From a plasmid, in sequence record NZ_CP090684.1: a stretch of 64,000 bases of DNA, one strand, 5' to 3'. Both the position numbers and the translations under genes were made by a program. This document shows positions 9,352 to 64,000 of this stretch, one piece after another (the stretch's first letter is position 1; each line of letters opens with the position of its first letter). The notes beneath the pieces were generated by a model. That model did no database searches. It was not told the origin of the DNA and worked only from the letters and a program-made list of their open reading frames with translations.

Positions 9352-9397
9352 AAAGGGGGGTGGTTTCGCATGCGAAACCACCCCCTTCGATTTTTGG
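9352..9397. terminator. bidirectional rho-independent terminator between convergent traG and the HTH gene
   Basis: Perfect palindrome GGGGGTGGTTTCGCATGCGAAACCACCCCC, followed by TTCGATTTTTGG on the + strand and TTTTAC on the - strand. Confidence 0.6.
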
Positions 9398-29341: not shown

Positions 29342-32300
29342 TTAAAAGCCTAACAAGTTTCCAGGGTCGGGTGAACGCTCCAAGGTTCGCTCGGTTTCCA
29401 CCGAACGAGTCGGTGCTACCTCAATACTCCGAGTAGCACCGTGCTTCGCCCCTTGGTCAGCACTCTGATCAAGGGAAGACTCAGCCCGTTCAAACTCGAC
29501 TGCTGTTGTCTTGCCCACTTCCCTACCGGCGTTGCGAAGTAGCGTATCCAAATCCGAGGTGATGATCTCGGTGTTGTCTTTCGCTCGCGACGCAGCAACA
29601 TACGCGGCCTCACGATTGAACACGCGCGCACCGATCTTGCTGACCGCCACAATTTCCCGGTGGTTCGTGGCCCCTTGCTCCTTGTACGACGTGTGAGCGT
29701 ACGCATGATCCACAAACCGCAGGTCGTCGTTCTTTAGGTCCGACTCCTTTCCATCTCGATACCATCGAATCTTGGCACCAAGGCTGTCGATCGCGACAAT
29801 AACGCCTTGCGTGCCATTGTCTAGCCGATTCAACTCCTGACCTGGAAGGCGTATGATCGCCCTGGTTTCGACTCGGTCACCTACGGCGAAAACGCGCGAC
29901 TCTTGAATCGCCGGGGAAAAGTAGTCTTGGCGTTGAGGGTTAATCTCCACCGACTTTCCTTTGGCATTCAGCGCATAGATCCGGTTCTTCTGGACGTCAT
30001 ACCCAGTCACTGTGAGCACGTCGCCTTTTTCAACGCCGATTTCGCGGTAGCTCTTTCGATAGATGAGCGCATCTACCCGATTTCGAGACAGCATTGATGC
30101 GTAGCGTTGCTCGGCGCCGGTCATCTTCGGGTCGTCAAGGTGTGGCTTTTCGAAGTGCGGGCCGCTGATGATCCCTACATCGGTCAAAGCCTGATGAACA
30201 GCGGCGTTTATCAATTTCCGGTCGCTGTTGGTGATCGCGACCACACCGACCTTCGGCGCATCGACACCCTTTGCCGTCAATTCCTGGAGGTTCTCCAGGT
30301 ACCTCTCCGCTACAGTTTTTGCAAGGTCTGATTCCGCTACACGCAGGGTGTCGAGACGCGCGATCGCCTGTGCGTAGTTCCCCGCCTTCATGTCCGCGAG
30401 GGCTTGGCGTGTTTGCGCGGTAGCGTCCCGAAAACGCCGCGTCTCCTCGAGAATTGACACGTTCATCCCTGCGATCTGCGCTTGTTCGAACGCCCGACCG
30501 GCTGCAACACTGCCGTGCTGCTTCACGTCGCCTTGCAGGACGGTCCGCGCGCCGATTTCGCGCGCGAATCGTAGGAGTTTCTCCGTGTCGTCCACGCCGG
30601 TCAAGGACGATTCATCCATCACGATCAGAGTCTTCTTTCCGTCAACGTTCCCGTACCGCCGAAGGTTTTCGAGCTTTGCCTGCGTCCGAGCGTATTCCGC
30701 ATCGAGTTCCGTTGCGGACCCTTGCCGCTCAAGGTAAAGCGTGTTCCGCGCCGCGACAGCCTCTGCTGTTCCGATCTGTTCGAATGTCATGAGTCGACGG
30801 CCGAGGGACGCCGCAACGTTAGCCGCTGCAGCACGCACCGTCTCCCTAGCCTGTTCGCCGAGCGTTACAGGGTGTCCCTGTTCAGTTCCGGCCGCTTCTC
30901 TGTGACGCGCCGCGATTTCCGATAACGCTGCCCCGATCGCATTGCGAAGGTTCTCCGGCGACCGGAAGACTTCACCCCGCTGATGATCAAACGTGTACCT
31001 GTGGGTGCCGTAGTCAATATCTTCGCTCTTTACCGCCAACGTCCGAGCCTCGATTCGCTGATCGTCGAGGCCCCGGAGCGTCGCCCGTTCCGAGATCGAC
31101 TTCCGTAGGTCTTGAAGCCGAAGCTCGACCGCCCGGATGGCACTGTCTCGTTTCGCGAAATACCCTGCAACGGTATCGCTTTGGATGCCGCTCGAAGCCT
31201 CGAGCTCCTTCGCGGCCGCTGCGGAGGTCGCCACGCCAATTACCTCCCACCCCATCGCTTGAGCGACGTCCTTCACCATCGCTAACGCCGCCGTCTTGCC
31301 TGTCCCGGCCTCGCCCTGAATGCCCTGAATCGAATCTTCATGCATCAGGACATTGCGAGCCGCCTGTATCTGTTCCCCGGAGAGCTTAAACTGCTCTCCA
31401 ATTTCGGCTGTCTTCTTCGCTTCGAATGCCGCGACCGCGGCGTCGAATTGGTCTTCCGCATCGAGCACAACGTTTCCCTGACCTCGGCCGGCGAGAATGT
31501 GCTCCGCAAGCTTAAGCTCGTTATCGATCGCCTTGTGGGTCGTGTATTGGATCTGGCCGCCCACCGTGATGCCGCGATCGACCAGCATATGGTTACGCAC
31601 ATGCTGATCGATCGCCCACTCGATCTCAGAAATGCTGCCGCGACTGAACTTCAACGCCGTGACCTCGAGATCAACGAGTGTGAAAGCCTGCTCCCGTTCG
31701 GTCAAATGTTCGATCGCCCAGGAGACTGCCCGCAGAGCGTTCGCTCGAGCATCGTTCGAAACGCTAACTGCTGCGCCCCGACTTGGCCCGGAATCCTGCC
31801 CCATCGCCGCCCCGTGCTCCACCGTTCGCTCTACACCGCGTCGCGGAACTTGCCGATCAGCGAACGCCTCCCGCGCGCGTTCTACGATCGAGGCCACGTC
31901 CAAATTTGCTTCTTTCGCCGTCTCCTCCCACACCGACTGCAGAATCTCCCGGGGGTGCTCCTGCTTGGCTGCTCGGCTGTCGAGTTTGGCTACCCTGCGT
32001 GCATCAAAGCTAGCTTCGCCCGGATCTATGCCATGCTTCAAAAGCGCCTCGCGGACCTGGACCGCGCGGGTACTGAATGTGTCGACGTGATCGCGTGAAA
32101 AGCCCTTCAGCTCGAAATCGATGCCGTTCTCCGCATACACAAGTTGGTAACCAAGATGTCGCAGGGCAGCCGCGAGCTCCGCTTTGTAAATGATGTCGCC
32201 GCGCGCCCGTAGCGTGTACAACAGGTCGTTGGTAAGGCTGCGCCACGAATGGCGTGCCCCATCGTAAACAGCGGATACGATCACGTTGTGGTTATGAAGC

Positions 32301-32818
32301 TGCGGCTCGTTCTCCCGGTTAGTTTCGTGCAGCACCGTCGCATACAGCAAGTTGCCGGCCACTTCCGGCCGGTTTCTTCCCTTTTCGTCTTTCACGCGAA
32401 TCAGAGAAGCATGCTTCTCAAACCATTCCATCGTCCGCGCATTCGCTGCAAGGTGCGCCGCGATCACACGGTCGTCCTTCCCAACCAATGCCGCGATCGA
32501 CACGCTTTTCGGCGGCGCAATCGTGAAGTCGATACCCGCCCGGCGCTTGTCCCCCTTACTGTTGTTCGCCAGATTCTGGATCTTGCCAGTGTCCGGATGC
32601 GGCATCCGCCCGCTTAGGAATTGAATGAACTCCTCTTTCGTAACTGCCTTCCCCCTGATACCGAGAAAATCGGCACCGCGTCCCTGCCAGTGAGCCGTCG
32701 CTTTCTCGTTTACATAGTAGTTGTCAGCCTTCTTCCCCGCGTCTTTGTTAAAAGACTTGTCGTGATATCTCGCAGCATCGGCGACGCTACGAATCGGTTC
32801 CTTCGAAATCACCCTCAC
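29342..32818 (-). CDS. traI: MobF-family conjugative relaxase-helicase (TrwC/TraI-like)
   Basis: N-terminal relaxase domain with the LHNHNVIV histidine motif. C-terminal helicase Walker A GIQGEAGTGKTAAL. 1158 aa. Confidence 0.85.
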   Translation of the reverse strand: MRVISKEPIRSVADAARYHDKSFNKDAGKKADNYYVNEKATAHWQGRGADFLGIRGKAVTKEEFIQFLSGRMPHPDTGKIQNLANNSKGDKRRAGIDFTIAPPKSVSIAALVGKDDRVIAAHLAANARTMEWFEKHASLIRVKDEKGRNRPEVAGNLLYATVLHETNRENEPQLHNHNVIVSAVYDGARHSWRSLTNDLLYTLRARGDIIYKAELAAALRHLGYQLVYAENGIDFELKGFSRDHVDTFSTRAVQVREALLKHGIDPGEASFDARRVAKLDSRAAKQEHPREILQSVWEETAKEANLDVASIVERAREAFADRQVPRRGVERTVEHGAAMGQDSGPSRGAAVSVSNDARANALRAVSWAIEHLTEREQAFTLVDLEVTALKFSRGSISEIEWAIDQHVRNHMLVDRGITVGGQIQYTTHKAIDNELKLAEHILAGRGQGNVVLDAEDQFDAAVAAFEAKKTAEIGEQFKLSGEQIQAARNVLMHEDSIQGIQGEAGTGKTAALAMVKDVAQAMGWEVIGVATSAAAAKELEASSGIQSDTVAGYFAKRDSAIRAVELRLQDLRKSISERATLRGLDDQRIEARTLAVKSEDIDYGTHRYTFDHQRGEVFRSPENLRNAIGAALSEIAARHREAAGTEQGHPVTLGEQARETVRAAAANVAASLGRRLMTFEQIGTAEAVAARNTLYLERQGSATELDAEYARTQAKLENLRRYGNVDGKKTLIVMDESSLTGVDDTEKLLRFAREIGARTVLQGDVKQHGSVAAGRAFEQAQIAGMNVSILEETRRFRDATAQTRQALADMKAGNYAQAIARLDTLRVAESDLAKTVAERYLENLQELTAKGVDAPKVGVVAITNSDRKLINAAVHQALTDVGIISGPHFEKPHLDDPKMTGAEQRYASMLSRNRVDALIYRKSYREIGVEKGDVLTVTGYDVQKNRIYALNAKGKSVEINPQRQDYFSPAIQESRVFAVGDRVETRAIIRLPGQELNRLDNGTQGVIVAIDSLGAKIRWYRDGKESDLKNDDLRFVDHAYAHTSYKEQGATNHREIVAVSKIGARVFNREAAYVAASRAKDNTEIITSDLDTLLRNAGREVGKTTAVEFERAESSLDQSADQGAKHGATRSIEVAPTRSVETERTLERSPDPGNLLGF

Positions 32819-33288
32819 ACCCCACTGAAGTCGAAGAATGCTGTCGCAGTGAATCCCGTTTCCCCTGCTTGCAGCGGGATGACAAGGCGTACCGGTTCGC
32901 TTTCAAGGCGGTCGCGATGTGCGTATTCTGTCGCTCGATAAAGCAGCGTGCGAACGGTGCGACTTCCTGATCGCAAGTACACGCGAATTGCTGGGTAGAG
33001 CATCGTGGGTTTGCTGCTCGCCAGTTGCAATTCGACGGTTGCTGTCTTCCCGTTATGCGCAAGCACGCGGAGATCCGATACCGTGACTGTGGTCACCTGG
33101 TGGTCCTCGGGTAGATAACGGATCGCTCGAATTTCAGCGATTTCCGCAGCTGATAGAACTCGCGTTGCGCCGTCCTGGCGCCCTATCCAATCCGCAGCGA
33201 TGCCCCACAGTTGAGAGGAAAACAACCAGCTTACGATGACGGCGCCCGCGGCTACCATCAGCAGCCATTTTCGAAATAGCGACTTCAT
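32815..33288 (-). CDS. membrane-anchored hypothetical protein
   Basis: N-terminal TM helix. Stop overlaps the traI start. No homology recognised. Confidence 0.4.
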   Translation of the reverse strand: MKSLFRKWLLMVAAGAVIVSWLFSSQLWGIAADWIGRQDGATRVLSAAEIAEIRAIRYLPEDHQVTTVTVSDLRVLAHNGKTATVELQLASSKPTMLYPAIRVYLRSGSRTVRTLLYRATEYAHRDRLESEPVRLVIPLQAGETGFTATAFFDFSGV

Positions 33289-35315
33289 CAGAACAACCCC
33301 TCATTTTCTTGCGAGACCGGCTCTCGACCGTCGCTATGTTCATCGCCACGCCCGACGTCGGCTGTCGGAAGCATCACTTCGCCAGTGTCTAGATCGGTGA
33401 CGATCCACTTTCCCTGCGTCGTTACGGCCGCCGTCGGACTGGTTGCCGCTGCCGCTGCCGCTGCAGCAGCTTGGGCCTTCATTGCTTCCGCCTCGGCCCG
33501 GACGCTTTCTATCGCATCTTGACCATCCGCGGCGGATATCTTGAACCGCGGATCGCGTGGCGGGTCCGGCTGCCTCTCGCGGAATCGCAAGGTTCGTGGC
33601 CACGGTCGATACCATCGAGGTAGCCAGTGGCGGTAGTTCACCAATGCCGGCGGAAAGTCACCGGCAACCTGAACGTATGCCATGCAGTTTTTCAGCAACC
33701 CAATCTTCGATGGCATGACCACCCACTTTTCGCGCTCGTCCTGGCTAAGCTGCCCCCCGTCACGCCAATCGGTCACGGCGATCGCCTGTCCCGCCCTGAC
33801 TACGGCTGTCTCACTCTTCCCCAAGCGCCGCGCCATTCGCTCCTGCATGTTCGGTTCATTGAGACGGAGCGTAACAGTGGTGTTGAAGCAGTTCATTAGC
33901 GTTTCGGCGCGGTCCGCACCCATGGACGTATTGAACTGCTTGTCTGCTTGAATGCCAGCGGCGACGCAAACCCCGTACTTCCGCAACTCCGCTTGCCGGG
34001 CGTCCAGCTTGATGTCACCAAGGACATGCGTTTCATCAAGAAAAAACCAATAGCGGTCCTCGTGACGAATTTCCCGGCGCGCGGCAATCGTCTGAAATGC
34101 CATCGTGATCAAGAGGCGAAATAGCGGTGCGAACATCGCATACGTGTCCTCGGTGCCGATGAGGAAAAGTCGCGTGTCGTCGTCCTTTTCGTAGAACTCG
34201 CGGAGCGTCCAAGTGCCGTCCTGAACCGCGGCGATTCCGTTCAAGTAGATGGCGATTGAACTGATCACCCCTTGACGCTGCCCCTTGGAGTCGCCGCCGA
34301 CTGCCGAGCTCGCAACAGAATTCTTGATCAAGAGCTCAAGCTCGTCCTCCGGCATGGAAAGGATGGCCTCGGAAATCAGGCGGGTATAGACCGCCCCGCG
34401 TTGACGCAAGCGTAAGGCCATCACCGAAAATAGCACTCGCGCTGCGTCCTCAAAGAATGCGCTCGCACCATGCACGACCCCCGCCTTAGGCGGCAAGAAT
34501 GCGTGTGCAAGCGTGTCCGAATCGTAGGTGTTCTCCATCTCCATGAACATCGACCAAGGGACCGAGCCAAGCAGGGCGGGATTAAAGAACAGGTCTTTTC
34601 CGGGACGGTAGTACGCTCGAAAGTATTCGCCGGCATGATCGTAAATTACCGACTTTCGGCCGCGCGCGAACACCTGGCCCATAAGATCGTGAATACCCAA
34701 CGATTTGCCTGTTCCTTGCGCCCCGACAAACATAATGCCCTGCATCGGCGCAGATCGAGGAAGGGCCACGTCAAGGACGGTATACGGCCCCGCCTCCTCG
34801 CGGCGTACAGCTTTCGACAGCTCTTCAGCCGAGACGACGTCCAACGCTCCGTCGACGCGCTTGTTCTCACGAGCCCGCCGACCGAGCCGCGCAAGGGACC
34901 GCCAAACCGCGTAATAGCCGGCCGCACCAAGTCCGACGCTGACCCACGCGACATATCGGAATGCCGTGACTGGCCGAGCAAGGTCGGGTACAACGTTCCT
35001 AAACTGAGGGGGAGTTAACCACTGGGCGAGCTCGCCGTCGGATTTGACGACGGTGAGGATCTTTTTCTCCCCAACACCATCGCGAATCCGCCAGCGTCGC
35101 GGTACCTCCTGATCGACGACGTGGGACAAGATATTGGCCTTAACGAGGTCGACATCATGAGCAGTAAGCGTGTTCATCCACCAGACGCTCGGCAGAACCA
35201 TCGCCGGCAACGCCCCGACAAAAAATGCCATCGAGGCAGCATGGACAGTCAGCTTGACCCGAGTCATGAAAAGCGCGCGTCCCGCGCCGGCATCGGAGAT
35301 TACCTTTTCGGTCAT
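33288..35315 (-). CDS. traD: type IV coupling protein TraD/VirD4 family
   Basis: Two N-terminal TM helices. Walker A FVGAQGTGKS. Walker B-like FFLDETH. Ala-rich acidic C-terminal tail. Confidence 0.8.
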   Translation of the reverse strand: MTEKVISDAGAGRALFMTRVKLTVHAASMAFFVGALPAMVLPSVWWMNTLTAHDVDLVKANILSHVVDQEVPRRWRIRDGVGEKKILTVVKSDGELAQWLTPPQFRNVVPDLARPVTAFRYVAWVSVGLGAAGYYAVWRSLARLGRRARENKRVDGALDVVSAEELSKAVRREEAGPYTVLDVALPRSAPMQGIMFVGAQGTGKSLGIHDLMGQVFARGRKSVIYDHAGEYFRAYYRPGKDLFFNPALLGSVPWSMFMEMENTYDSDTLAHAFLPPKAGVVHGASAFFEDAARVLFSVMALRLRQRGAVYTRLISEAILSMPEDELELLIKNSVASSAVGGDSKGQRQGVISSIAIYLNGIAAVQDGTWTLREFYEKDDDTRLFLIGTEDTYAMFAPLFRLLITMAFQTIAARREIRHEDRYWFFLDETHVLGDIKLDARQAELRKYGVCVAAGIQADKQFNTSMGADRAETLMNCFNTTVTLRLNEPNMQERMARRLGKSETAVVRAGQAIAVTDWRDGGQLSQDEREKWVVMPSKIGLLKNCMAYVQVAGDFPPALVNYRHWLPRWYRPWPRTLRFRERQPDPPRDPRFKISAADGQDAIESVRAEAEAMKAQAAAAAAAAATSPTAAVTTQGKWIVTDLDTGEVMLPTADVGRGDEHSDGREPVSQENEGLF

Positions 35316-35662
35316 GCCGCCTCCGCTATGACCTGAACGCCGCAGTCGTCAACGCGGACAAGTTGAAAATCGAGTACTTCCGTCGGCAACAGCATGGCCA
35401 GCTCCTCAGACCGCGCACCGAAATTGTCGCGCCATCTCCTATCAGGCATTCTCAGAAAATCGGCCGCTCGGATAGCTCCGTCACGTCCCACAAAAATCAT
35501 GTCGATCGCAGTAACGGTTGGCCCCCCCGCGAGTTGGTATTCGAACTGAAACGCACACTCGCTACGGGACGGACTCACGTAGGTCGAACACGTGACGCGG
35601 TATTTGCCTGGCCGCAAATGCACCGGCTCGTTTATAGAGGCAAACTTAATCGGCAGCAGCAT
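35312..35662 (-). CDS. hypothetical protein (116 aa)
   Basis: Protein-like composition. Overlaps the traD start. No motif. Confidence 0.35.
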   Translation of the reverse strand: MLLPIKFASINEPVHLRPGKYRVTCSTYVSPSRSECAFQFEYQLAGGPTVTAIDMIFVGRDGAIRAADFLRMPDRRWRDNFGARSEELAMLLPTEVLDFQLVRVDDCGVQVIAEAA

Positions 35663-36107
35663 CGGGGCCCCCTACCCTGAAGACACCTTCATCAAACGCG
35701 CGACTGATCCGCTCGCCTTCCCTCACCGAAGCGGTGATATGGCCTTTCACCTGTTCCCTCATTGGCGCCGGTATAGACGTCGCCATACCGGGTGGAATTG
35801 AAGCCGCGGCAACGGCCCCGGCCGAGAGGGCTGCCGTCTTTACCAACAGCGTATGCAGCTCCGCGTACTGGCCCCGGAGGGCCTCAAGTTGATCCAGCAA
35901 CACTTCATGCCGTCTGTCGTAGTTCGCTAAAGCGTCACGATGAAGAAGCTTCGCGTACGCGTTAGGGGTTAGCTTTCTCTTCCTGGCCTCTTCCTCCAGC
36001 ATCTCGAATTCCTTCCAGTCCACGCGGAAGTGGACAGATTTCAGAGTCACGGTTTGGTCTCTCCGCAAAAACTTGGTTTTGATATCGGGTGGTGCAATCT
36101 GCACCAC
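35646..36107 (-). CDS. MobC-like relaxosome accessory protein (ribbon-helix-helix)
   Basis: RRDQTVTLKSVHFRVDWKEFEMLEEEARKRKLTPNAYAKLL resembles MobC/RHH mobilisation proteins. First gene next to the AT-richer non-coding region. Confidence 0.5.
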   Translation of the reverse strand: MVQIAPPDIKTKFLRRDQTVTLKSVHFRVDWKEFEMLEEEARKRKLTPNAYAKLLHRDALANYDRRHEVLLDQLEALRGQYAELHTLLVKTAALSAGAVAAASIPPGMATSIPAPMREQVKGHITASVREGERISRAFDEGVFRVGGPDAAAD

Positions 36108-36428
36108 TTACTAACCCAATGATTCTGTTGCTGATTCTAGACAGAAATTTACATCAGTGGAAGTAGTGATTATAATTGTGGTGCGCAAAAAAGCGCGATA
36201 AATCATCTGCTTGCGATGGTTTTGACGTCTGCACGGTACGTGCGTCATGTCTGTGCTTTTGTGGAGGGGCGGCTTTGACTTTCCCGCGATCGGATAGATG
36301 GCGGACAACGGCATGCGCCACGACAACAGGACGATGCCGGGAATTGCTTTTGAGGCGTGAGAAAGCGGGGATTCTCGGGCGCACGCAGCCGGCATCGTCC
36401 GGTCCATCATCACTATTCGAGGAGTCCA
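36108..36428. promoter_or_regulatory. candidate oriT
   Basis: Lowest-GC stretch in the region (TTACATCAGTGGAAGTAGTGATTATAATTGTGG). Imperfect inverted repeat TGACGTCTGCACG-GTA-CGTGCGTCA at about 36225-36250. Followed by TTTTGTGGAGGGGCGGCTTT, reminiscent of the F nic region GTGGGGTGTGGTGCTTT. Lies between the relaxosome gene and the leading region. Confidence 0.45.
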
Positions 36429-36743
36429 ATGAACCAGGAAAAATCAGGAACTCACAAGCCGCGCGGCCGCCGACCGGCAGCGTCTCTTGAGGAGAGGATC
36501 GCCGAGGCCGAAAGGCTCGTGGCGAGTCTGAAAGAGCAGAAGAAGCTTGAAGAGCGTCAGAACTTGGAGAGGAACCGTAAGGCGATTCTCGACCTGTTCA
36601 AAAGCGAAGGCGTCGATACGATTCCGATCGAAAAGTGGAAGGCGGCGATGCCGGAGCTGAAGACGGTCCTCGGCGTTGGTCGCGGTGCGACCGACGTCGG
36701 GAGCGGTGTAAGCGAAGCCAAAGGCGCGGAACAGGCGGCATAG
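36429..36743 (+). CDS. small basic coiled-coil protein (105 aa)
   Basis: Met at MNQEKSG. Lys/Glu-rich helix LEERIAEAERLVASLKEQKKLEERQNLERNRKAIL. Only plus-strand gene on the leading side. Confidence 0.4.
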   Translation: MNQEKSGTHKPRGRRPAASLEERIAEAERLVASLKEQKKLEERQNLERNRKAILDLFKSEGVDTIPIEKWKAAMPELKTVLGVGRGATDVGSGVSEAKGAEQAA

Positions 36744-37568
36744 CGTTTTCCACAAATCCACGGCAGCGAACGGACGGCAGCGATTCGTTTGGATCGCAAG
36801 AGCCGTCCGCCGCGCGAGATATCCACAACGTCGTTTGTTGTGGGTATCTCATTCGGCGCGGGCTGCGGTGGGGCTTGTTGGGAAACGCGCTGCACTGGGC
36901 CACGGGCGGCTGCGGTGCGACCGGCGGTCGAAAGCGATCGCGGCGCGGATGCGCCGCGAGAGCGCCGGCCGACGTCGTCAATCCGACGTCAGGGAGTGTA
37001 GGCGGCGCAGCCGTCGAAACTCACTCAAAAATCACCTTATCCCGATCGGAGACGAGCGGGATCTGGATAGCAGCTTCCGACAACCGCGCTGTCCCCGAGA
37101 ATCGTTGATTTTTCGTGATCGGTACTCTCGCGAAAGGCTGGGGCTTCTCGCGAGCGGGTCACAGGGTGACCGGCTCGCGACGGCGCGAGCATGTGCATTG
37201 CGCAGCAATGCAATGCGGAGCGGATACCCGTACGGTAGATCTGACGAGTGGCGCGCTAGCGCCAGGAGACGGATCGGACGATTCAATTTGGAGCAAGGAA
37301 TTGCGCCAAATCTGGATAGCAGCGCTAGGGGCCCGAAACTGCCCACCCTAGCTCGCCGAGGTGCGACTTTCGCAGGCGAAAGTCGAGATTTCAATTCGGT
37401 GCGCCCTGCTACCCGCAAGCCTTCGATTCGAAGCATTCGCAACGCACGGCGAGCCGTCCATCGTCAAATTTCTTCACTTCGGCGGGCGTCGGCGCGCCGG
37501 GTGTTTCTACCTTGGTCATAGTAACTCCGGGCTGTTGTGGCCCGCCGCAGCGGGCCGGATTGGCACAC

Positions 37569-45826: not shown

Positions 45827-48082
45827 TTAAGCCGCCGGCCGGCTTCCAGCGAGCACGTTCGGCGTCGGCGTCGCAAACGGCCACGGGAATCGCGCCGATT
45901 GAGTGACTCGGCCTCCCGCAAATTCCGTCGGCGCGACGTCGGCTGGCTTCACGCCGGTCTCAGCACCGTCCGGACTATCCGAGACCGTGTCAGGTTGCGC
46001 CGGTTCATCACCCAGCACTTCCTCGTGGGCTCCGAGATTGTCCGCCGTCGCGAGCTCGCCGTCCGCATCCTCCTGCTCATTACCGTCATCGCCGAAATAG
46101 GTTCGCGCGGTACGGACTTCGGCAGCAGCCATGAATTCGGGAAGCCAGTTCTTGTCGGCAAGCAGTTTTTCCGCTTCCTGCGCCGCCTCTGCCTTCTTCA
46201 TTTTCCCCAACCTCGCCCCATGCTCCTTCGAAATGACGTCACTCACGATCGCAACGATTCGATCCTTCGAGACATGATTAAGGTACGACTCGCAGGTGGG
46301 CTTCCAGTACTTCGTGAGGTCAAGTTCCAGAGCGCCGGCGAGCGCATTGATAGCATTCGGTTCTTCCGTGCGGCTCACACCATTCAGACTCAGAGCCGTG
46401 CAAACGGCGAGAATGTTCAGGACTACCGCTTGCGGCTGTTCGAGCAACCATCCGAACAGTTCGTTCGGGTTTTTCGGAATCATGCGAGTGACCGCCAGCA
46501 CCGACCGTGCAAGCTGGTCGTACTGGGGCAACTCCTTGATGCCGGGCACAGCTCGATCCGCGCTGTACATCGGCTGCTGTTCCTTGATCTGCACAGCACT
46601 GAGGTCGCTATAGTGCTCATAGACGAACTCCAGCAACAGTCGGTGTGCGACAGCGACGAGCGCAACGCCGGGGTTCGCAACAAGCGCGGTTTGAACCGCT
46701 GCCGTGCGGTGCGACGTCAGATTGAGCAGCAGTTTCTCCGAATGCAGCCCCTTAACCTTCTTGGTCAGGCTACGCGGGACCGACTGACCTGCCTCTTCCA
46801 TCATCGCACGCGCTTGCGCCCGATTCTCGCGACGCACCAAGCCGCGCACGATTTCAAGTGCTCCGTCGTAGCCGACCGTGACGATCGCCCCGCTCACTTT
46901 CATCTGCTCCGAGGTGAACTCTCCGTCGCGGTCGTCCATTTCCTGCATGATCGCGTAAAGCTGATTGCACTCGCCGTCCAGCTTTTCCCGGTCCTCGTCG
47001 CTGAGGTACGCAGCATCGCCCACTTCGGCATCGTAGCTTGCCTCGATTTTCTCGCTGAGTTCGTCGGCCCGCATTTGAGCTTCTTCGTATTTTGCCTTTT
47101 CGTCGCTAGTGAGCGGAACCGGAGTGGAATAAAGTTGCGTAAACTGGTTGCGGTCGTCATAGTCGAAGGTCGGTCGGGCTTCAACCCAATTCCAGCCTTC
47201 GGCCTTGATCGATTCGACCGTGCAGGCGATTTTCTCATCGAACAATCGAGCCAGCAGCTCACGATTGACGATGAAACCGTCATCTTGCTCCGCGAACAGG
47301 TCGCGCTCCACCTCTCCCCCGGCTGCTTCGTATGCGGCGACAGTCACGAATCGCACCATCCGGTCCCCGAACGACAGTTTCTCGCCTTTCAGCACATTGC
47401 GCAGTGCGTTAGGGCTCTGGTTCCAGTGTCCCTTTGCACCGAACCACGCCGCTTCCTGTCGCTCGTGGTTGTCGGTGATGGCAAGCGCCTTGATCTGTTC
47501 GAGGCTGATGACGTCCGCAGCAAACAGTTCAAAGAGCTTCGGGGAAACGTTCGCGAGCTTCAATCGACCGGCGACGACCTTCGGACTGACATTGAAGACT
47601 GCCGCAATGAACTCAGGGCTTCGGCCCTCGTCTGCAAGCGCCTTGTAGGCAGCGAATTGGTCTGCAGGGTGCGGGGGTACGTGCAAGTCATTTTCTGACG
47701 CACTAGCAAGGATCGCCTGCGCCTCCGAAATCTCGATGCAACGCACTTCATCGTCCATCGACATGTAGCCGCGCTCGACGTTGAACAGGAACGCTTGACG
47801 GCGCGTTTCCCCCGCGTCGACGCCCCACTCCTGCGCCTTCTTCGCCCTCTGCGGCATTTTATGCACAACGAGGTTCTGTAGTTGACCGACAGCAAGCATG
47901 TTGTCTGCGATTGCCACAATGGTCGCTTGATCGCGCTTCTTCTTACGCTGGTTATACGGCGAAGCGACCAGCCGTTTCAACGGAATCATCACTTCCCGTT
48001 GCCCTGCGCGAAGCATGTTCGGCATGTCGGCGGGCAGTGCATCGGCGTTCACGTTGGCGTCTTGTGCAATCACGGTTTTCAT
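45827..48082 (-). CDS. ParB/Srx-fold (ParB-like nuclease domain) protein, 751 aa
   Basis: N-terminal ParB-like block PLKRLVASPYNQRK...IADNMLAVGQLQNLVV. GAGGAA Shine-Dalgarno before the ATG at 48082. Long acidic C-terminus. Confidence 0.65.
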   Translation of the reverse strand: MKTVIAQDANVNADALPADMPNMLRAGQREVMIPLKRLVASPYNQRKKKRDQATIVAIADNMLAVGQLQNLVVHKMPQRAKKAQEWGVDAGETRRQAFLFNVERGYMSMDDEVRCIEISEAQAILASASENDLHVPPHPADQFAAYKALADEGRSPEFIAAVFNVSPKVVAGRLKLANVSPKLFELFAADVISLEQIKALAITDNHERQEAAWFGAKGHWNQSPNALRNVLKGEKLSFGDRMVRFVTVAAYEAAGGEVERDLFAEQDDGFIVNRELLARLFDEKIACTVESIKAEGWNWVEARPTFDYDDRNQFTQLYSTPVPLTSDEKAKYEEAQMRADELSEKIEASYDAEVGDAAYLSDEDREKLDGECNQLYAIMQEMDDRDGEFTSEQMKVSGAIVTVGYDGALEIVRGLVRRENRAQARAMMEEAGQSVPRSLTKKVKGLHSEKLLLNLTSHRTAAVQTALVANPGVALVAVAHRLLLEFVYEHYSDLSAVQIKEQQPMYSADRAVPGIKELPQYDQLARSVLAVTRMIPKNPNELFGWLLEQPQAVVLNILAVCTALSLNGVSRTEEPNAINALAGALELDLTKYWKPTCESYLNHVSKDRIVAIVSDVISKEHGARLGKMKKAEAAQEAEKLLADKNWLPEFMAAAEVRTARTYFGDDGNEQEDADGELATADNLGAHEEVLGDEPAQPDTVSDSPDGAETGVKPADVAPTEFAGGRVTQSARFPWPFATPTPNVLAGSRPAA

Positions 48083-48760
48083 AGCATTCCTCAAAATTAA
48101 CATTGAAGTTGTGACGGGACCGCCGGGCCCCAAGATTCTGAGTCCCGGCGTAAGCCGTTCTGTCGAGTCGGCGGGCCGCGCTCCGCAGCTGCCGCCGTTC
48201 CCCTGAGTTCGTCGTCCCGCGACGATCGGAGCGAGGACCAGTGCATCGTCAAGGGGTGACGCGCGGGTCGGTGCGGGAGGGAGCGCAGCGACTGACACGG
48301 TCCCGCGCGCCCTTGACGTTGCGCTGGCCGCAGCTACAGTCGCGGAGGTGGACGGCGAACGAGGGGGACGGAGATGAAGGCAGCACCCGTACCACGACGA
48401 GCCAGAACGCCCCGCGCGGCGAGCGCGCTATCCGAGCGGCGCGACGTCAGGAGCGCCGAGAGGCTGGAGGGATGGCCCGCGCCGGGGCAAGTCCGCGGGA
48501 CGCGGCGCAGCCCCAAGAGCGGAAGTGTTTGGTCTCCGGGCCGCCGCGTGCGCGGCTTGCGTGTCGGCCGGTAGTGCCGGCCGGCGCGCAAGGTGCGGCG
48601 GCCCGGCTGGCTTCCGGGCCCAGGTCCACCGTCAGTGCAGCGTCGGTAGGTCCGCGCCTTCTTCCGTTCCCACGCCCCACGAGAATTCGGCCAATACGTA
48701 TGGGGCGAGCGTCGCGCTCGCCCAACGATAGTTACGCGCTTTGCTCAGTGCGATCTCGGT
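48083..48760 (-). repeat. leading-region hairpin element D
   Basis: Core GCCGGGCCCCAAGATTCTGAGTCCCGGCG. Arms CCGTTCCCCTGAGTTCGTCGTCCCGCGACG / CGTCGCGGAGGTGGACGGCGAACGAGGGGGACGG. Inner GTCAAGGGGTGACGCGCGGG / CCCGCGCGCCCTTGAC. ~85-90% identical to element E over ~500 bp. Confidence 0.6.
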
Positions 48761-53990: not shown

Positions 53991-54480
53991 GGCTGCTCTA
54001 TCCGCATGTTGGGTGGCGCCGGGCCCATAGATTCCGAGTCCCGGCGTAAGCCGTTCTGTCGAGTCGGCGGGGCCGCTGCTGCGCCTGCCGCCGTTCCCCT
54101 GAGTTCGTCGTCCCGCGACGATCGGAGCGAGGACCGGAGCAACGTCAAGGGCGACGCGCGGGGCGGTGCGGGATGGAGCGCAGCGACTGACACGGCCCCG
54201 CGCGCCTTGATGGTGCGCAGGCCGCAGCTACAGTCGCGGAGATGGACGACGAATGAGGGGGAAGAAGGAGTCAGGGCGTGACGTCGCGCGAGACAGAACG
54301 CCGCGCGGCGAGCGCCCTTTCACGCGGCAAGCGCCAGCGGCGCCGCGTGACACAATTTCGGCCTTTTAGTGCGCAGGACGGTAGAACAGCGCACTCGTCA
54401 GATACCGTCGCGCGGTACGGGTGGGGCTGGCGCACCGGTCCACCCGTACCGCGCGACGGCTGGTTCCTAACGCGGATCCG
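53991..54480 (-). repeat. leading-region hairpin element G
   Basis: Core GGCGCCGGGCCCATAGATTCCGAGTCCCGGCG. Arms CCGTTCCCCTGAGTTCGTCGTCCCGCGACG / GTCGCGGAGATGGACGACGAATGAGGGGGAAG. Distal ACGCCGCGCGGCGAGCGCCC. Confidence 0.6.
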
Positions 54481-54483
54481 CGG

Positions 54484-54753
54484 CTAGAAGCGTCCGGCGA
54501 TCTTCGGTTCAATTACGGCGAAGAGCGCTGCCGACTGCTCGGCGTCGAGTCCGCTGGTAAGCGCGTAGTCGATGCAACGCAAAGCGACACGCTTCGCTTC
54601 CGCTTCGAGCGCACAAACGTCAAAGAGGCTGCAGATCATGTCGGGGTGCACGATAGACGCGAGTACGTCGAGTAGCGACTCATTGCGACTATCAATGCTG
54701 GCGTCTAGGACAGCCAAGGCGTCAACGAAGGGTTGTGGAAGCGTTCGGATCAT
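54484..54753 (-). CDS. hypothetical small protein (89 aa)
   Basis: Met at MIRTLPQPFVD. AT-rich promoter-like region upstream, around 54820-54900. Confidence 0.4.
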   Translation of the reverse strand: MIRTLPQPFVDALAVLDASIDSRNESLLDVLASIVHPDMICSLFDVCALEAEAKRVALRCIDYALTSGLDAEQSAALFAVIEPKIAGRF

Positions 54754-55439
54754 GGCTGAAAAAAAGCCGGACAAGCCGCGGCCGCGTACATCAAACCACC
54801 GCGCGTGGTGGTTCTTGACCGACAGAAAATATTAATTCTTATCACTTAATGAAATGACGATACTTTTAAACGTATATTGCAAACGGAGCCATTGTACGGT
54901 TAAATTAACCGGCCCTGACGATCAGGGCGTCTCTAGCAGTTCTCTTTCCCAAAGGCAGTCAAAGGCCCGCGCAAGCGGGCCTTTGGCTTTGTGCAGCGGG
55001 CATGGCCAAAAGTTAAGCACGTCGGGCGGCCCTTGTTGCCCGCGTCCGCGCCGCACGTTAGATCCGACGCGTTCGTCGGGACCGCTTCCACTAAACCGCT
55101 ATCGATCGCTGGGCGCCCCGCACGCTCATAGGTGCGCCTTGCCGGGGCGTTGCGCCCTGTTGGTATGGTCAGTTTCGCGAGCGAACGCTTATCCGCGCGC
55201 TGACCGGTTGCCCAGCGCCCTCGGCGCCTCAACCCCTTTCGGACTCTTCCGGACCGCGCCAAGAGCCTCTACGCGCTTCCATGGGAGCCTTTTTCAGACC
55301 GCGAGCCCCCTCCTTGCAGAGCATGGGGTAGACGGTGGTTGCGCGAGGGCGCGTCTCGGCAATGGGCGAGCACACGAGCGCGTTGATCACCGGGGTGGCG
55401 GGCCACCCCGGTGATCTTTTACGCGCACTTGGGGGCCGG

Positions 55440-55680
55440 CGTGCCATAGGCACGTCGGCGCCTTAGTGCCTGCCGCGCGAAAGGGGTGACTTGAGGGGGG
55501 TGTTTCGTATCCATGCCCCGTAGGGGCCACGATATTGCAGTTCGGGGGGGGGGGCCGGGTGGGTGGGGCCGGCTTTAGCCGGCGAACCCGGCCGGGGGGG
55601 CTCTTTGGAGCCCCCCCTCACTGAGGGTGGCGCCGTTCCATTCCGGAGTTAAAACCAAGTTAAAAAATTCGGTTAACCGC
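55440..55680. other. G-rich highly structured block followed by AT-rich direct repeats (candidate DNA-unwinding element)
   Basis: G11 run. Perfect 10-bp hairpin GGGGGGGCTC-TTT-GGAGCCCCCCC. GGCCGGCTTTAGCCGGC. Then GAGTTAAAACCAAGTTAAAAAATTCGGTTAACC, with GTTAA(AA) x3. Confidence 0.45.
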
Positions 55681-55732
55681 GCGCGCGTTTACGCATTTGC
55701 TGAACGCCGGTGCACAAGGGACATGGGCTGAT

Positions 55733-56141
55733 GAGGTGGTCCGTTCGACGCGCGACCGGTGGTGCGAAAGACGATCTCTGCGGGACTGATAGACGCGCAC
55801 GGTGGCGCCATAGACGCACAGCATCCGGACTTATCCACAGATTCGGTTCCGGTGGTCCAATAGACGCCCGCAAAAAATACAGCGAACACATGGCACTCGC
55901 CTGCCGCGCCGGCTGGTCCTACTGCAGAAACCCTTACTGCGTAAGCTATTGAAAGAACATGACCTTCAACTCCGGTGGTGCGATAGACGTCCCGAACGGT
56001 GGTGCGATCGACACTTCAGGAGCGACAAAGCCTCGCGACAGAGTGGTGCAATAGACGCCGGATTATGGTGGCGTGATAGACACGACGCCTCGTCACCTCG
56101 CCGGGAACGTGTCGGTTAGCGTGAGGTGGCGCGATAGACGT
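55733..56141 (+). repeat. array of ~10 direct 17-bp iterons, consensus GGTGGYGCRATAGACGY
   Basis: Copies: GGTGGTGCGAAAGACGA, GGTGGCGCCATAGACGC, GGTGGTCCAATAGACGC, GGTGGTGCGATAGACGT, GGTGGTGCGATCGACAC, AGTGGTGCAATAGACGC, GGTGGCGTGATAGACAC, GGTGGCGCGATAGACGT, plus two degenerate copies. All in the same orientation with irregular spacing. Confidence 0.7.
55831..55839 (+). promoter_or_regulatory. consensus DnaA box TTATCCACA inside the iteron array
   Basis: Exact 9-mer match, between iterons 4 and 5. Confidence 0.5.
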
Positions 56142-56405
56142 ATCAGCCGACGCAACAATCGATCGGTACAGTATCCATGCGAGCCGTATGAATTCTCCCG
56201 CCGGATACTCGGTCTCGATGCTGATACACGAGCGCGGTTTGGCAGTGGCGGCCTGCCCGTTGGAGTCCGGTTGATTAAGTTGCCGCACGCGTTGCGATCT
56301 CAATTACGGTCGCGATGGAGACGCTAGCCAGGCCGAACGCGCCGGTCCCTTCACTCAGATCCGAACCCTACGGAAGCTGGAAAAAAGCGGGTGGAGGTTC
56401 TCGTA

Positions 56406-56630
56406 TCAGTGAGGGTTCTGTGCGTCGAAGCAGTCCTCAACCCAAGCCCACCGACCGTTAGCAAGCCCGCACCATTCTTGCCCTTCTCCGGTCCATCGGT
56501 TGATTCGAACCGTACCTTCACGATCGTATTGGTACCGAAGCATGATGGCAGCAATCAGCACCGCGAAGGCAATCGCGAATGCAAGCCAGCTAAGTCCTTT
56601 GTCTGCGTTCATCTTCGCGACCTCGTTCAT
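56406..56630 (-). CDS. small membrane protein (75 aa)
   Basis: Hydrophobic helix LSWLAFAIAFAVLIAAIML. Last gene of a tightly packed six-gene minus-strand cluster. Confidence 0.35.
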   Translation of the reverse strand: MNEVAKMNADKGLSWLAFAIAFAVLIAAIMLRYQYDREGTVRINRWTGEGQEWCGLANGRWAWVEDCFDAQNPH

Positions 56631-61578: not shown

Positions 61579-62373
61579 ATGTGCTATTCCGCCAAGGTCG
61601 AAGCTAACTACCGCGAATACGTGCGCCGCTACGGCGCCGACATGGACATCGAGTCATTCAGGCGCCTGTATTTTGCGCGTGCAGCGTCCGGCGACATCAA
61701 GATCCCGAAAGCGGTCGACGCGGCGCTTGCAGCAGCTGGAGACGACGAGATTTCGGCCGCGATCTTCGCGTATCGCACTCACCGTGCCAGCGAGCTTGAA
61801 TCCGAGCTCTTTAAGCAGCGGACACGGCTTGCGGCCGCGGAGAAAAAGCTGGCGGCGAAGGTCACCAAGGCCGCCAGCGAGGACGTTCGAATCGCCACCG
61901 ACAAGATCGAAGCGGCGATGCGCGGCCTCGAGGATCTTCGTCGGACCGACCTGCAGGAGCGCGATTCCCGAATTTTCCCTGGTTGGTATGCGCCCGTGTT
62001 GATTGAGCTCGATGGGAAGCGCGTGATTGTTCCGATGCGCTATCGGTGCCGACTGCCTGGATGGACGGAGCGCGATGAGAGGCAAAAGCCCGGCACCTAC
62101 AATGCGCGCGTCGATTCGTTGTCGACGGCGTGGCGCAAGGTGTTCGGGTTCTCGCATGGGCTAATGCTGGTCGACGCATTCTTCGAGAACGTGAAGCGCG
62201 ACGAGCGGAACGTCGTGCTGCGCTTTGATCCGACGCCCCGGCAGCACATGCAGGTCGCTTGCTTGTGGACGCGCACCGAAATCCCTGGCTCGGACGATCT
62301 CTGGTCGTTTGCGGCGATCACTGACGATCCGCCGCCGGAAGTCGCCGCGGCCGGACACGACCGATGCATCTGA
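61579..62373 (+). CDS. SOS-response-associated peptidase (SRAP/YedK family) with a ~100-aa helical insertion
   Basis: Starts MC (catalytic Cys2). C-terminal AAAGHDRCI resembles the HDRMP motif. WRKVFGFSHGLMLVDAFFE block. 264 aa versus ~220 typical. Confidence 0.6.
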   Translation: MCYSAKVEANYREYVRRYGADMDIESFRRLYFARAASGDIKIPKAVDAALAAAGDDEISAAIFAYRTHRASELESELFKQRTRLAAAEKKLAAKVTKAASEDVRIATDKIEAAMRGLEDLRRTDLQERDSRIFPGWYAPVLIELDGKRVIVPMRYRCRLPGWTERDERQKPGTYNARVDSLSTAWRKVFGFSHGLMLVDAFFENVKRDERNVVLRFDPTPRQHMQVACLWTRTEIPGSDDLWSFAAITDDPPPEVAAAGHDRCI

Positions 62374-62649
62374 ATACTATTAGCCGTTAGACGATCGTAA
62401 CTCGTTGATTGAATGTGGATTTTGACAACGAATAGTTTGCCGCGCGCCGGCCACGTTAATACGATTCAATAATCGTCAGCTATCCTCCGACTGAGTTTCC
62501 AGCCATTGTCAAATGCCACGATCCTGAAGTCCCTTCCGGGTATTCGATCCCTAATTCGCCGTTGGACGAGTTCGCTGCCGCTTCCGGCATGACGGAATCG
62601 TGTATCGCTACCTGGCTTCAGCCCTACCCGCCTGCCACACGCCAACCGC

Positions 62650-63384
62650 TTGGACTCCATGACACCGACTGCAAAGCTCGCCTTGCTCACGTTACCGCCC
62701 GTGCTGGCGGCCTGTTTCGGCGCCCTCGCGGCCGCTTGGCGAGCGCCGGGCCCGAAAACGTCGAGCGTGATCCAGCATTTCACGGGCGGCATCGTGTTCG
62801 CGGCCGCCGCGCTTGAACTGCTGCCCCAAGACCGTGCGCATGCGTTGATTCCGGTCGTCGTCGGTTTCGTGCTCGGGATCGCACTGATGCTCGCGATCAG
62901 CGAGCTATCCGGATCGATCGAAACGCGCTTCGAGACAGCGCGGCTGCCGGTGAGCCTGATCATCATCACCGCGATCGACCTCGTCGTTGACGGCCTGGTG
63001 CTCGGCATTGCCTTTTCCGCGAGCGACGAAAGCGGCATCATCCTGACCGTCGCACTGACGCTCGAGGTGTTGTTCCTCGCCCTTTCGGTCAGCGCGGCGC
63101 TGGCCGCGGCTGGCATCGGCCGCTTGCTGTCGATCGTCGTTCCGGTCGCGCTCGCGGCCCTGCTGAGCGTCGCGGCCGTTGTCGGCAATGCGGCGTTCGC
63201 CGGGCTGCCGGCGAATATCTATGCAGCGCTGCTGGGGCTGGGCACCGTCGCTCTGTTGTACCTCGTCACTGAGGAACTGCTGGTCGAAGCGCACGAAGTG
63301 CCCGAATCGCCGTTCGCGACGGCTTCGTTCTTCATCGGCTTCATCGTGTTCTTCCTGATCGAAGGATCGGTGAAAGTCGGATGA
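62650..63384 (+). CDS. ZIP-family divalent metal transporter (ZupT-like)
   Basis: Polytopic. QHFTGG and HEVPES sit at the positions of the ZIP HNFxEG and HExPxE motifs. Confidence 0.6.
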   Translation: MDSMTPTAKLALLTLPPVLAACFGALAAAWRAPGPKTSSVIQHFTGGIVFAAAALELLPQDRAHALIPVVVGFVLGIALMLAISELSGSIETRFETARLPVSLIIITAIDLVVDGLVLGIAFSASDESGIILTVALTLEVLFLALSVSAALAAAGIGRLLSIVVPVALAALLSVAAVVGNAAFAGLPANIYAALLGLGTVALLYLVTEELLVEAHEVPESPFATASFFIGFIVFFLIEGSVKVG

Positions 63385-63406
63385 ACCGGGCGTAACGGCG
63401 CGGCGG

Positions 63407-63910
63407 TTACCAGGTCGTCGCGCCAGTCGGATAGGTATCGACGATCCGCGTGCCGTTGACCGGCGTGACACCCTCGTCGCGTAACGCGGTCCAGAGATCG
63501 ATTGCATGTTCGCGCGACTTGCGGCTGCCGTCGTCGGCCAGCACGTTCAGCGCGATCACTTCGTCGCGTGTGGTCAGCTGCAGTTGCTCCTTCAGCTTGC
63601 GTGACTGATGCGACGCGGTGCGAACGTCGCCGAGCATGATCCGCGTCTCCGCGACCGCCGAATCGTCTCCGGTATCGGCCGGCACGAACGTCAACCAGCC
63701 GTTGTCGACTTCGCATAGCCCGCGCGCAAACCTCGCGGTCCACGCGCCGGCTGGCACGACCGCGAATTCGCAAAGCATCCGCTCGTTCGCGCGGCTGCCG
63801 ACGTCGTGGGCCGGCGCGTGCGACAGCGCACGTTCCGGCCAGCCTGCCGCCGTCGCGGCCGTCGACATCAGGCACGCCGCCAGCACGATTCCTTTCACGA
63901 TATTTCGCAT
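63407..63910 (-). CDS. secreted hypothetical protein (168 aa)
   Basis: Signal peptide MRNIVKGIVLAACLMSTAATAAG. Confidence 0.45.
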   Translation of the reverse strand: MRNIVKGIVLAACLMSTAATAAGWPERALSHAPAHDVGSRANERMLCEFAVVPAGAWTARFARGLCEVDNGWLTFVPADTGDDSAVAETRIMLGDVRTASHQSRKLKEQLQLTTRDEVIALNVLADDGSRKSREHAIDLWTALRDEGVTPVNGTRIVDTYPTGATTW

Positions 63911-63941
63911 CGCCCCTCCTTTTCTTGAATCAACGATCAAA

Positions 63942-64000
63942 GCACCGCGAAGCGGTTGTCGTGCGCGTCGACCATCGGCATCTTCTCGCCTCGATGAACG
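63942..64000 (-). CDS. 3' end of a minus-strand gene running off the window
   Basis: Open frame ending ...EKMPMVDAHDNRFAVL then stop near 63942. Too short to classify. Confidence 0.2.

Follow-up and report, generated by a model that had tools for sequence, protein, structure and literature searches.

The 64,000-nucleotide stretch of plasmid DNA analysed here (NZ_CP090684.1, hereafter the window) carries an array of direct repeats, or iterons, near its right end. We are highly confident that the region at about 55300-56141, which this array closes, is the vegetative origin (oriV) of an iteron-controlled theta replicon, and that its initiator is a replication protein (Rep) of the RPA family (PF10134). 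A sequence-only reading of the window had pointed to an iteron-type vegetative origin on a plasmid, and the proposal is supported by conservation of the layout in 13 other replicons, by its linkage to a rep gene and by an outgroup in Ralstonia. The element is very probably the origin of a family of Burkholderia conjugative plasmids, ordinary in kind and not described before. In the literature searched we found neither the iteron string, nor an experimentally mapped origin for these plasmids, nor any paper on the origin of pBPSE01, pOLGA2, pTGL1 or pBMUL01.

The repeat unit is a 17-mer. When GGTGGYGCRATAGACGY was searched over the whole window with up to three mismatches, 10 matches were obtained against 1.75 expected, and none of 100 shuffles reached 10. 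Nine of the ten are clustered at 55735-56141, every one on the + strand; a degenerate tenth copy of the array, with five mismatches, lies at 55780-55796, in a slot where the relatives have an intact iteron. The array of about ten direct repeats first noted at 55733-56141 is therefore one of nine copies and a degenerate one, starting at 55735. It falls into two clusters. The proximal cluster (55735..55867, + strand) has five copies, at 55735-55751, 55758-55774, 55780-55796 (the degenerate one), 55801-55817 and 55851-55867, with the same offsets in 14 replicons; iteron 1 is degenerate too, with three mismatches. The start-to-start distances of iterons 1-4 are 23, 22 and 21 bp. The starts of iterons 5 and 6 are 123 bp apart and the intervening spacer is less stable. 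The distal cluster (55974..56141, + strand) has copies starting at 55974, 55998, 56042, 56067 and 56125, with an irregular spacing of 24, 44, 25 and 58 bp. Ten 17-mers on one strand, with regular steps in the proximal part, are the direct repeats to be expected of an iteron theta origin, for which units of about 17-22 bp in a single orientation, set some two helical turns apart, are typical. Such an origin should also have a DnaA box, and an exact one, TTATCCACA, lies between iterons 4 and 5 at 55831-55839 (+ strand); it had been placed correctly at about 55831 from the letters alone, and it is the sole exact copy in the window.

Is this layout found in other plasmids? Two complete plasmids of Burkholderia multivorans, both isolated from humans (the source of one is recorded as sputum), have unannotated DNA that is 98% and 94% identical to the region, and the remainder of the window matches their F-type (MPF_F) conjugative backbone. 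A sensitive search gave diverged copies of 55402-55876 in pBPSE01 (B. pseudomallei), in pOLGA2 (Paraburkholderia phytofirmans) and in plasmids of P. dioscoreae and B. thailandensis. Homology to the array was found in six plasmids of PLSDB, and only Burkholderia and Paraburkholderia plasmids matched at the DNA level. A 21-bp block, GTTAAC(CG)5TTTAC, is invariant in these first six plasmids and was used as an anchor to query species-representative genomes; it retrieved five more replicons from Burkholderia and Caballeronia, and two further ones came from the contexts of Rep homologues. The layout was compared over the window and its 13 relatives, that is, 14 replicons of the genera Burkholderia, Paraburkholderia and Caballeronia. 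Across them the iterons, the DnaA box and the anchor keep position-perfect spacing, with all iterons in one orientation. Counted from the anchor, iterons 1-4 lie at +63, +86, +108/109 and +129/130 in the 14 replicons, the DnaA box at +159/160 in 12 of the 14, iteron 5 at +179/180, and iterons 6-10 at +301-304, +325-328, +369-373, +393-397 and +452-485; a few replicons are without individual elements or have shifted ones. The consensus over 128 iteron copies is GGTGGTGCGATAGACGC, in which GAC is invariant, and the DnaA box of B. thailandensis reads CTATCCACA. No iterons were found elsewhere in the 23-41 kb of flanking DNA of the relatives. Two replicons depart from the common layout. In pBPSE01 (L003, 15330-15413) four proximal iterons are left, and the DnaA box, iteron 5 and the distal cluster have been lost; in a P. 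xenovorans contig (L032, 15523-18534) an insertion of about 2.6 kb splits the proximal from the distal cluster.

The array adjoins a candidate DNA-unwinding element, an AT-rich patch at 55644..55678 (assigned to neither strand) that stands out by its low stability and its conservation. The triple AT-rich GTTAA repeat described in the sequence-only reading was recovered here, with starts at 55648, 55659 and 55672, and it is kept in all relatives and in the Ralstonia outgroup. The 40-mer at 55637-55676 (GC 0.33) is within the lowest 0.3% of the window's 40-mers in stability. An unstable, AT-rich and conserved patch next to the iterons is what an unwinding element should look like, and this one is short. 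Between the patch and iteron 1 lies the anchor itself, the block GTTAAC-(CG)5-TTTAC at 55672..55692 (neither strand), which is identical in 14 of 14 replicons and occurs only once in the window even when three mismatches are allowed. Its (CG)5 core, 55678-55687, is preserved in the Ralstonia outgroup as well, and could potentially form Z-DNA.

There is a further question of where the initiator gene lies. The sequence-only reading had remarked that no rep gene adjoins the repeats, and indeed none of the RPA, RepO or RepA type was detectable by tblastn across the window. In every relative with enough flanking sequence, an operon of a hypothetical gene, parA, parB, a korA/trfB-like gene and rep stands on the right-hand side and reads towards the array. 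The last gene, rep, has RPA ('replication initiator protein A', PF10134, 2e-56) as its sole Pfam match, and the same operon gives matches to KorA (4e-9) and ParB_N (4e-7). This RPA rep, the likely cognate initiator gene, is visible in ten array-bearing replicons, always on the opposite strand and pointing with its 3' end at the distal cluster. The gap between the stop codon of rep and the last iteron differs greatly in length. It is 143 bp and free of cargo in P. dioscoreae (L005), 1.1 kb in C. zhejiangensis (L010), 1.8 kb in B. thailandensis (L006), where it holds a gene for a NucS-domain endonuclease, and 2.8-2.9 kb in pOLGA2 (L004), in L011 and in the metagenome contig L034, with an HNH endonuclease gene in L004 and L034. 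It reaches 4.4 kb in P. xenovorans (L032), with cargo that includes a weak HNH_5 match, and 8.2 kb in pBPSE01, with genes for H-NS and for an SOS-response-associated peptidase (SRAP) and a cassette of imuA, a Y-family polymerase gene and dnaE2. In the B. multivorans plasmids L001 and L002 the gaps are 11.4 and 14.9 kb, filled with a cassette of the pBPSE01 type and insertion sequence (IS) elements.

The missing neighbour can be explained in this way: the interval between rep and oriV is a site of cargo insertion, 0.14-15 kb long, and only 7.9 kb of the window lie to the right of the array, so that the cargo inserted between rep and the origin keeps rep out of the window. At the right end of the window the SRAP gene (61579-62373) is truncated at about 62373, the match to relatives with imuABC stops at about 62370, and a heavy-metal/arsenic resistance island fills 62370-64000. 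Many plasmids and megaplasmids of Burkholderia carry this island at 99-100% identity, and the protein at the right end matches it too. The junction at 62370 is a cargo replacement within the rep-oriV interval, and rep most likely lies beyond base 64000, behind the heavy-metal island. That the replicon would still carry rep is suggested by an operator-like palindrome of the rep operon, TTTCGCATGCGAAA, which is present in the window and points to the control operon being on the replicon; rep is also intact in L001 and L002, the complete relatives that are closest. Contexts of rep in B. multivorans and B. ubonensis were viewed with 10-kb flanks, which end short of the origin. Among them is a 1.0-Mb B. 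multivorans contig (CP020601.1, L025) in which an identical rep operon is followed by IS256 and unrelated genes, with no array within the 10 kb read downstream of rep; here the operon may belong to a plasmid cointegrated into a large replicon.

A view of the original arrangement comes from Ralstonia plasmids whose Rep is 48-51% identical. Directly after rep they have a non-coding gap of 1.4-1.5 kb, in which the iterons begin 3 bp (L036) or 42 bp (L037, CP191331.1) past the rep stop codon, with start-to-start spacings of 23, 23, 22, 50, 112-123, 22 and 45. The DnaA box takes the same slot as in Burkholderia, in inverted orientation, and the origins also have an AT-rich patch with three GTTAA, an alternating CGCGCGCG block, GC-rich hairpins and a solitary iteron 900-965 bp away. 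Element order and spacing are thus shared, and these plasmids are true homologues of the family; they differ in the abutment of origin and rep, in the inverted box and in one half of the iteron. The Ralstonia iterons ACGGCGATAGACGAG and TACCGCGATAGACGA retain the GATAGACG half, whereas the 5' half is ACGGC or TACCGC as against GGTGGTGC in the Burkholderia-type array. Such a pairing of a conserved with a changed half is what co-evolution of one half with the initiator's specificity would produce. Since the Ralstonia origin abuts rep, the comparison of sequences shows adjacency to be ancestral and the separation in Burkholderia to be secondary. The scenario would be that rep originally abutted the origin, and that in the Burkholderia lineage cargo entered between them: H-NS, SRAP peptidase, imuA-imuB-dnaE2, IS elements and, in the window, the heavy-metal island.

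Does the Rep protein look like an iteron-binding initiator? An iteron theta origin is expected to be served by a Rep of dual winged-helix fold, encoded on the same replicon. A sequence search of the PDB with Rep matched no chain. An AlphaFold model of Rep made with 37 homologues (predicted local distance difference test 75.6, predicted template-modelling score 0.72) matched domains 2-3 of RctB, of Vibrio cholerae chromosome 2, with E 1.9e-9 and probability 1.0, and more weakly RepE of plasmid F in complex with its operator (E 0.023, probability 0.82). Both proteins bind direct repeats at origins; the sequence identity of Rep to them is as low as 10-14%, and the origin sequences are unrelated. 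The model therefore suggests that Rep has the iteron-binding initiator fold of RctB and RepE. The RPA family is common, with matches in 1186 plasmids of the collection, but more than 60% identity to this Rep was found in only five, which correspond approximately to the six plasmids with array homology.

Since the rep operon linked to the array also encodes ParA, a protein with a ParB_N domain and a KorA/TrfB-like repressor, linkage does not discriminate between Rep and these as the ligand of the repeats. Could the array be a partition centromere, or an operator array for a global regulator (ParB/KorB-like, KorA-like, or the protein encoded at 45827-48082), and no replication origin at all? The sequence-only reading had raised such a ParB/KorB alternative. 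Some centromeres are direct-repeat arrays, and the irregular spacing of the distal cluster (24, 44, 25 and 58 bp) would suit one. However, ParB_N-type proteins are expected on palindromes, such as parS and the IncP-1 KorB operator, most often close to promoters or par genes, and the repeats here are asymmetric 17-mers, all in one orientation and 21-23 bp apart in the proximal cluster. A better candidate for a centromere or operator is TTTCGCATGCGAAA, a 14-bp perfect palindrome. It lies in the promoter region of the operon, upstream of the first gene, in L001 and L002 (about 140 bp away in both) and in L004 and L005, and recurs at other intergenic sites; its positions are 9364-9377 (exact) and 37368-37381 (one mismatch) in the window, 37178 in L001, 32323 in L002, 7938 and 23219 in L004, 4987, 20450 and 25149 in L005, and 13243 in L006. 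We take it, from its sequence and positions, as a candidate KorA/KorB-type global operator or parS. The fixed DnaA box, the adjoining AT-rich patch and the abutment to rep in the outgroup are further hallmarks of an origin.

The supposed ParB-like gene at 45827..48082 fits the centromere no better. The protein encoded at 45827-48298 (- strand) has no Pfam match at E <= 0.001 and a sub-threshold match to HTH_ParB (E 0.01). Its homologues are named 'ParB/RepB/Spo0J family partition protein' in RefSeq. The gene, which has establishment-type neighbours but no ParA partner, is unlikely to encode the partition ParB. Taken together, we judge it quite improbable that the array is a centromere or operator array.

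The related plasmids carry other initiators as well. An argument that this origin is the sole replicon was dropped, because NZ_CP090706.1 has a ParAB-RepA module and pOLGA2, pI, L032 and L034 have a RepO-like one. The ParA-ParB-RepA module of NZ_CP090706.1 (L039, 6879-10491) comes with its own 15 or more unrelated iterons, GCGCATAAnTTGGGGCG. The other module, of a RepO-like protein ('replication protein O') and ParAB, adjoins the RPA operon as an integrase-ParA-ParB-'replication protein O' module at 30839-36679 in pOLGA2 (L023) and at 21224-27084 in L005. The RepO-like protein does not track the array, being found in 105 PLSDB plasmids as against 6 with the array, and neither the window nor the sequenced portions of L001 and L002 contain it.

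Might the array then be a relic, conserved by descent and non-functional here, on a replicon that is kept by another replicon outside the window? The multi-replicon nature of the relatives just described would allow it, the window's iterons 1 and 3 are degenerate (three and five mismatches), and rep could have gone when the right flank was replaced by the heavy-metal island; in L025, moreover, rep is followed by unrelated genes, with no array in the 10 kb read. On the other hand, the degenerate pattern is common to three B. multivorans-type plasmids at 94-98% identity, and neither the anchor nor the DnaA box nor the spacing is disturbed. With TTTCGCATGCGAAA in the window suggesting that the control operon is on the replicon, and with intact rep in L001 and L002, we regard a relic as unlikely.

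Another thought is that the region is an origin of transfer (oriT) for a MOBF relaxase, or that it belongs to another initiator, RepO-like or RepA. Regions with oriT lie between genes and abound in inverted and direct repeats (PMC4853378), and the left-hand genes look like ones for establishment or anti-restriction; in relatives they include an ArdC-like protein and methyltransferases. A MOBF oriT is expected, however, to have a single nic site and to adjoin the genes for relaxase, accessory protein and coupling protein. In the related Ptw plasmid the functional oriT lies beside ptwA and the genes for coupling protein and relaxase (ptwA/B/C) (PMC4853378). The coupling-protein and MobF genes annotated in pOLGA2 are about 38-44 kb from the array, and their counterpart in the window, as judged by collinearity, would be the large leftward open reading frames (ORFs) at 29342-35315, near 29-37 kb, about 18 kb from the array. 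As for the other initiators, the RepO-like and RepA types are lacking in the window and in most of the loci that bear the array, and RepA has iterons of its own. Both versions of this idea seem to us extremely improbable.

Several observations weigh against an RPA-dependent origin and should be noticed. Function is deduced from sequence for every member of the family. The rep gene is co-operonic with parB and korA, and linkage alone cannot say which protein binds the repeats. The rep gene itself is absent from the window, with the heavy-metal island to the right of 62370. The AT-rich patch is only about 35 bp long, at GC 0.33, and pBPSE01 is without the DnaA box and the distal cluster. Several of the plasmids are multi-replicon, so that this origin need not be the one used. 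The cumulative GC skew of the complete pOLGA2 has no extremum at the array (about 8 kb); the extrema are at 45.9 and 90.5 kb, and a skew as weak as this one, which tracks gene orientation, is uninformative.

How would an origin of this design work? By analogy with RK2, F and R6K, we infer that Rep monomers would occupy the five proximal 17-bp iterons, with host DnaA on the box between iterons 4 and 5. The complex of Rep and DnaA would melt the GTTAA AT-rich patch about 60 bp to the left of iteron 1, and Rep and/or DnaA would hold the single strand and recruit DnaB, which would thereby be loaded. The distal five-iteron cluster together with a solitary iteron would serve copy-number control by handcuffing. 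The variants in pBPSE01 and P. xenovorans, in which the distal cluster is lacking or displaced, fit a non-essential role of that cluster. In iteron plasmids, including RK2, the minimal origin comprises DnaA boxes, iterons and an unwinding element, and once that element is open Rep also contacts one of its strands (PMC4980987).

Among known systems, the nearest analogues are the IncP-1 and PromA origins, and the true homologues are the Ralstonia RPA plasmids. The 17-bp iterons of RK2 are likewise arranged as a proximal five and a separate distal cluster; its origin, too, has DnaA box(es), and its unwinding element is rich in AT and precedes a GC-rich region. The context of control and partition genes is KorA/IncC/KorB-like in both. 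In IncP-1 plasmids (RK2, R751), too, the initiator gene is transcribed towards the origin and variable accessory DNA stands between oriV and trfA, which gives a precedent for a split origin (PMC4980987, PMC11628540). The differences are that the initiator here is RPA and not TrfA, PF10134 being the sole match, that the iteron sequence is unrelated to that of IncP-1, that a single DnaA box stands between iterons where IncP-1 has a block of four, and that rep shares an operon with parA-parB-korA. PromA plasmids (pMOL98, pSFA231, pIPO2) give a second precedent, with a predicted theta origin of iterons, DnaA box and AT-rich region 5.1 kb downstream of repA and a backbone with korA, incC, korB and kfrA; however, their RepA lineage groups with IncW RepA and their four iterons are of different sequence (PMC4290620). 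Searches of plasmid DNA gave no homology between PromA and the region described here.

To the left of the AT-rich patch lies a conserved, GC-rich structured module of about 330 bp (55307..55635, + strand), recognised from alignments, compensatory changes and folding, and it belongs to the origin. Five hairpins are predicted in it, H1 at 55385-55416, H2 at 55425-55469, H3 at 55515-55527, H4 at 55553-55593 and H5 at 55594-55617, together with unpaired blocks that are invariant, among them CTTAGTGCCTGCCGC at 55462-55476, and a G-run of G-quadruplex type (G11-CC-GGG-T-GGG-T-GGGG) at 55544-55568. The G11 tract followed by a perfect 10-bp hairpin, which had struck the sequence-only reading as unusual, is present as described: the G11 run is at 55544-55554, where the relatives have GGGGGGTGGGGCCGGGTGGGTGGGG, and the arms of the hairpin are at 55594-55603 and 55608-55617. 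Compensatory changes affect 18 of the 82 predicted pairs of the module, and 10 of 11 in H1. Folded as single-stranded DNA, the module is far more stable than its shuffles on both strands (z = -5.9 on the + strand, -6.5 on the - strand). The excess of G.T over A.C pairs in the hairpins (24 vs 6) hints that the + strand folds, but it is not relied on, the structure having been predicted on that strand. Rfam 15 gave no match at gathering score over the whole window and chance-level matches only (E 0.12-0.87) on 54400-56600 at E <= 1; a scan for promoters and terminators gave counts no higher than the shuffle level. The G-quadruplex-type run and the (CG)5 tract flank the AT-rich patch, and both are conserved across the family.

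What does the module do? Our best guess is a signal for priming or primosome assembly, or a boundary or insulator for unwinding and transcription; terminators, an RNA or alternative DNA structures are further possibilities. A bolder proposal is that the module of about 330 bp and the (CG)5 tract form an obligatory, previously undescribed working part of this class of origin; we put it forward tentatively and consider it rather doubtful. Under that proposal the module may be neither a passive GC-rich spacer nor a set of transcription terminators, and its possible roles are a structured signal for priming or primosome assembly, an origin-proximal RNA, or a supercoil-sensing switch of Z-DNA or G-quadruplex that sets the site and timing of opening. 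The module and the (CG)5 tract recall the unexplained GC-rich region of the RK2 oriV, and with its invariant (CG)5 this family offers a tractable case for the role of the 'GC-rich region' in iteron origins.

The assignment defines an origin and a likely initiator for a plasmid family that occurs in B. multivorans isolated in cystic fibrosis, in B. pseudomallei, and in Paraburkholderia and Caballeronia that live with plants and insects. Both the 17-mer and the anchor of 21 bp can serve as markers for replicon typing and could seed Burkholderia-specific vectors. The interval between rep and oriV is a recurrent site of cargo insertion, receiving mutagenic-polymerase cassettes, IS elements and metal-resistance islands in parallel to IncP-1, and this accounts for the failure of automated tools to type such plasmids or to find their origin.

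The left flank remains to be described. The 1.77 kb at 54640-56406 have no credible gene. An ORF of 186 aa at 54854-55414 was rejected as a gene: it has no Pfam match, is unannotated in relatives, and its DNA is unconserved even in close relatives. We treat it as spurious, in agreement with the earlier description of 54900-55440 as non-coding, which the sequence comparison supports. Further left, a solitary iteron-like site, GGGTGCACGATAGACGC, with three mismatches is found at 54644..54660 (+ strand), inside a leftward ORF of 89 aa (54484-54753). Judged from the window alone, the site may be due to chance or coding constraint. It has counterparts in L001, L002, L003 and L008, about 1006-1031 bp to the left of the anchor, and in L004, L005 and L034 there are solitary copies that match better, at about 530 bp left of it. 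The 89-aa ORF (- strand) is conserved, has no Pfam match and opens a long leftward gene block; RefSeq gives it a length of 51 aa in two of the relatives, as against 89 aa in pBPSE01.

Between this ORF and the GC-rich module is a left boundary region, 54800..54995 (+ strand), which consists of an AT-rich stretch and two conserved hairpins. The stretch includes the most AT-rich 40-mer of the window (54829-54868, GC 0.20), and the hairpins are at 54912-54928 and 54957-54988, the second with a GCAA loop and followed by CTTTG. This second hairpin is the GCAA-tetraloop stem of the sequence-only reading. In pBPSE01 and Burkholderia sp. WTPI3 compensatory changes leave both of them paired. The boundary region is confined to the subgroup of the window, pBPSE01 and WTPI3, with the GCAA hairpin found additionally in pOLGA2. 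It may be a (divergent) promoter with (bidirectional) terminators, or a small RNA of about 100 nt, and it probably lies outside the core of the origin.

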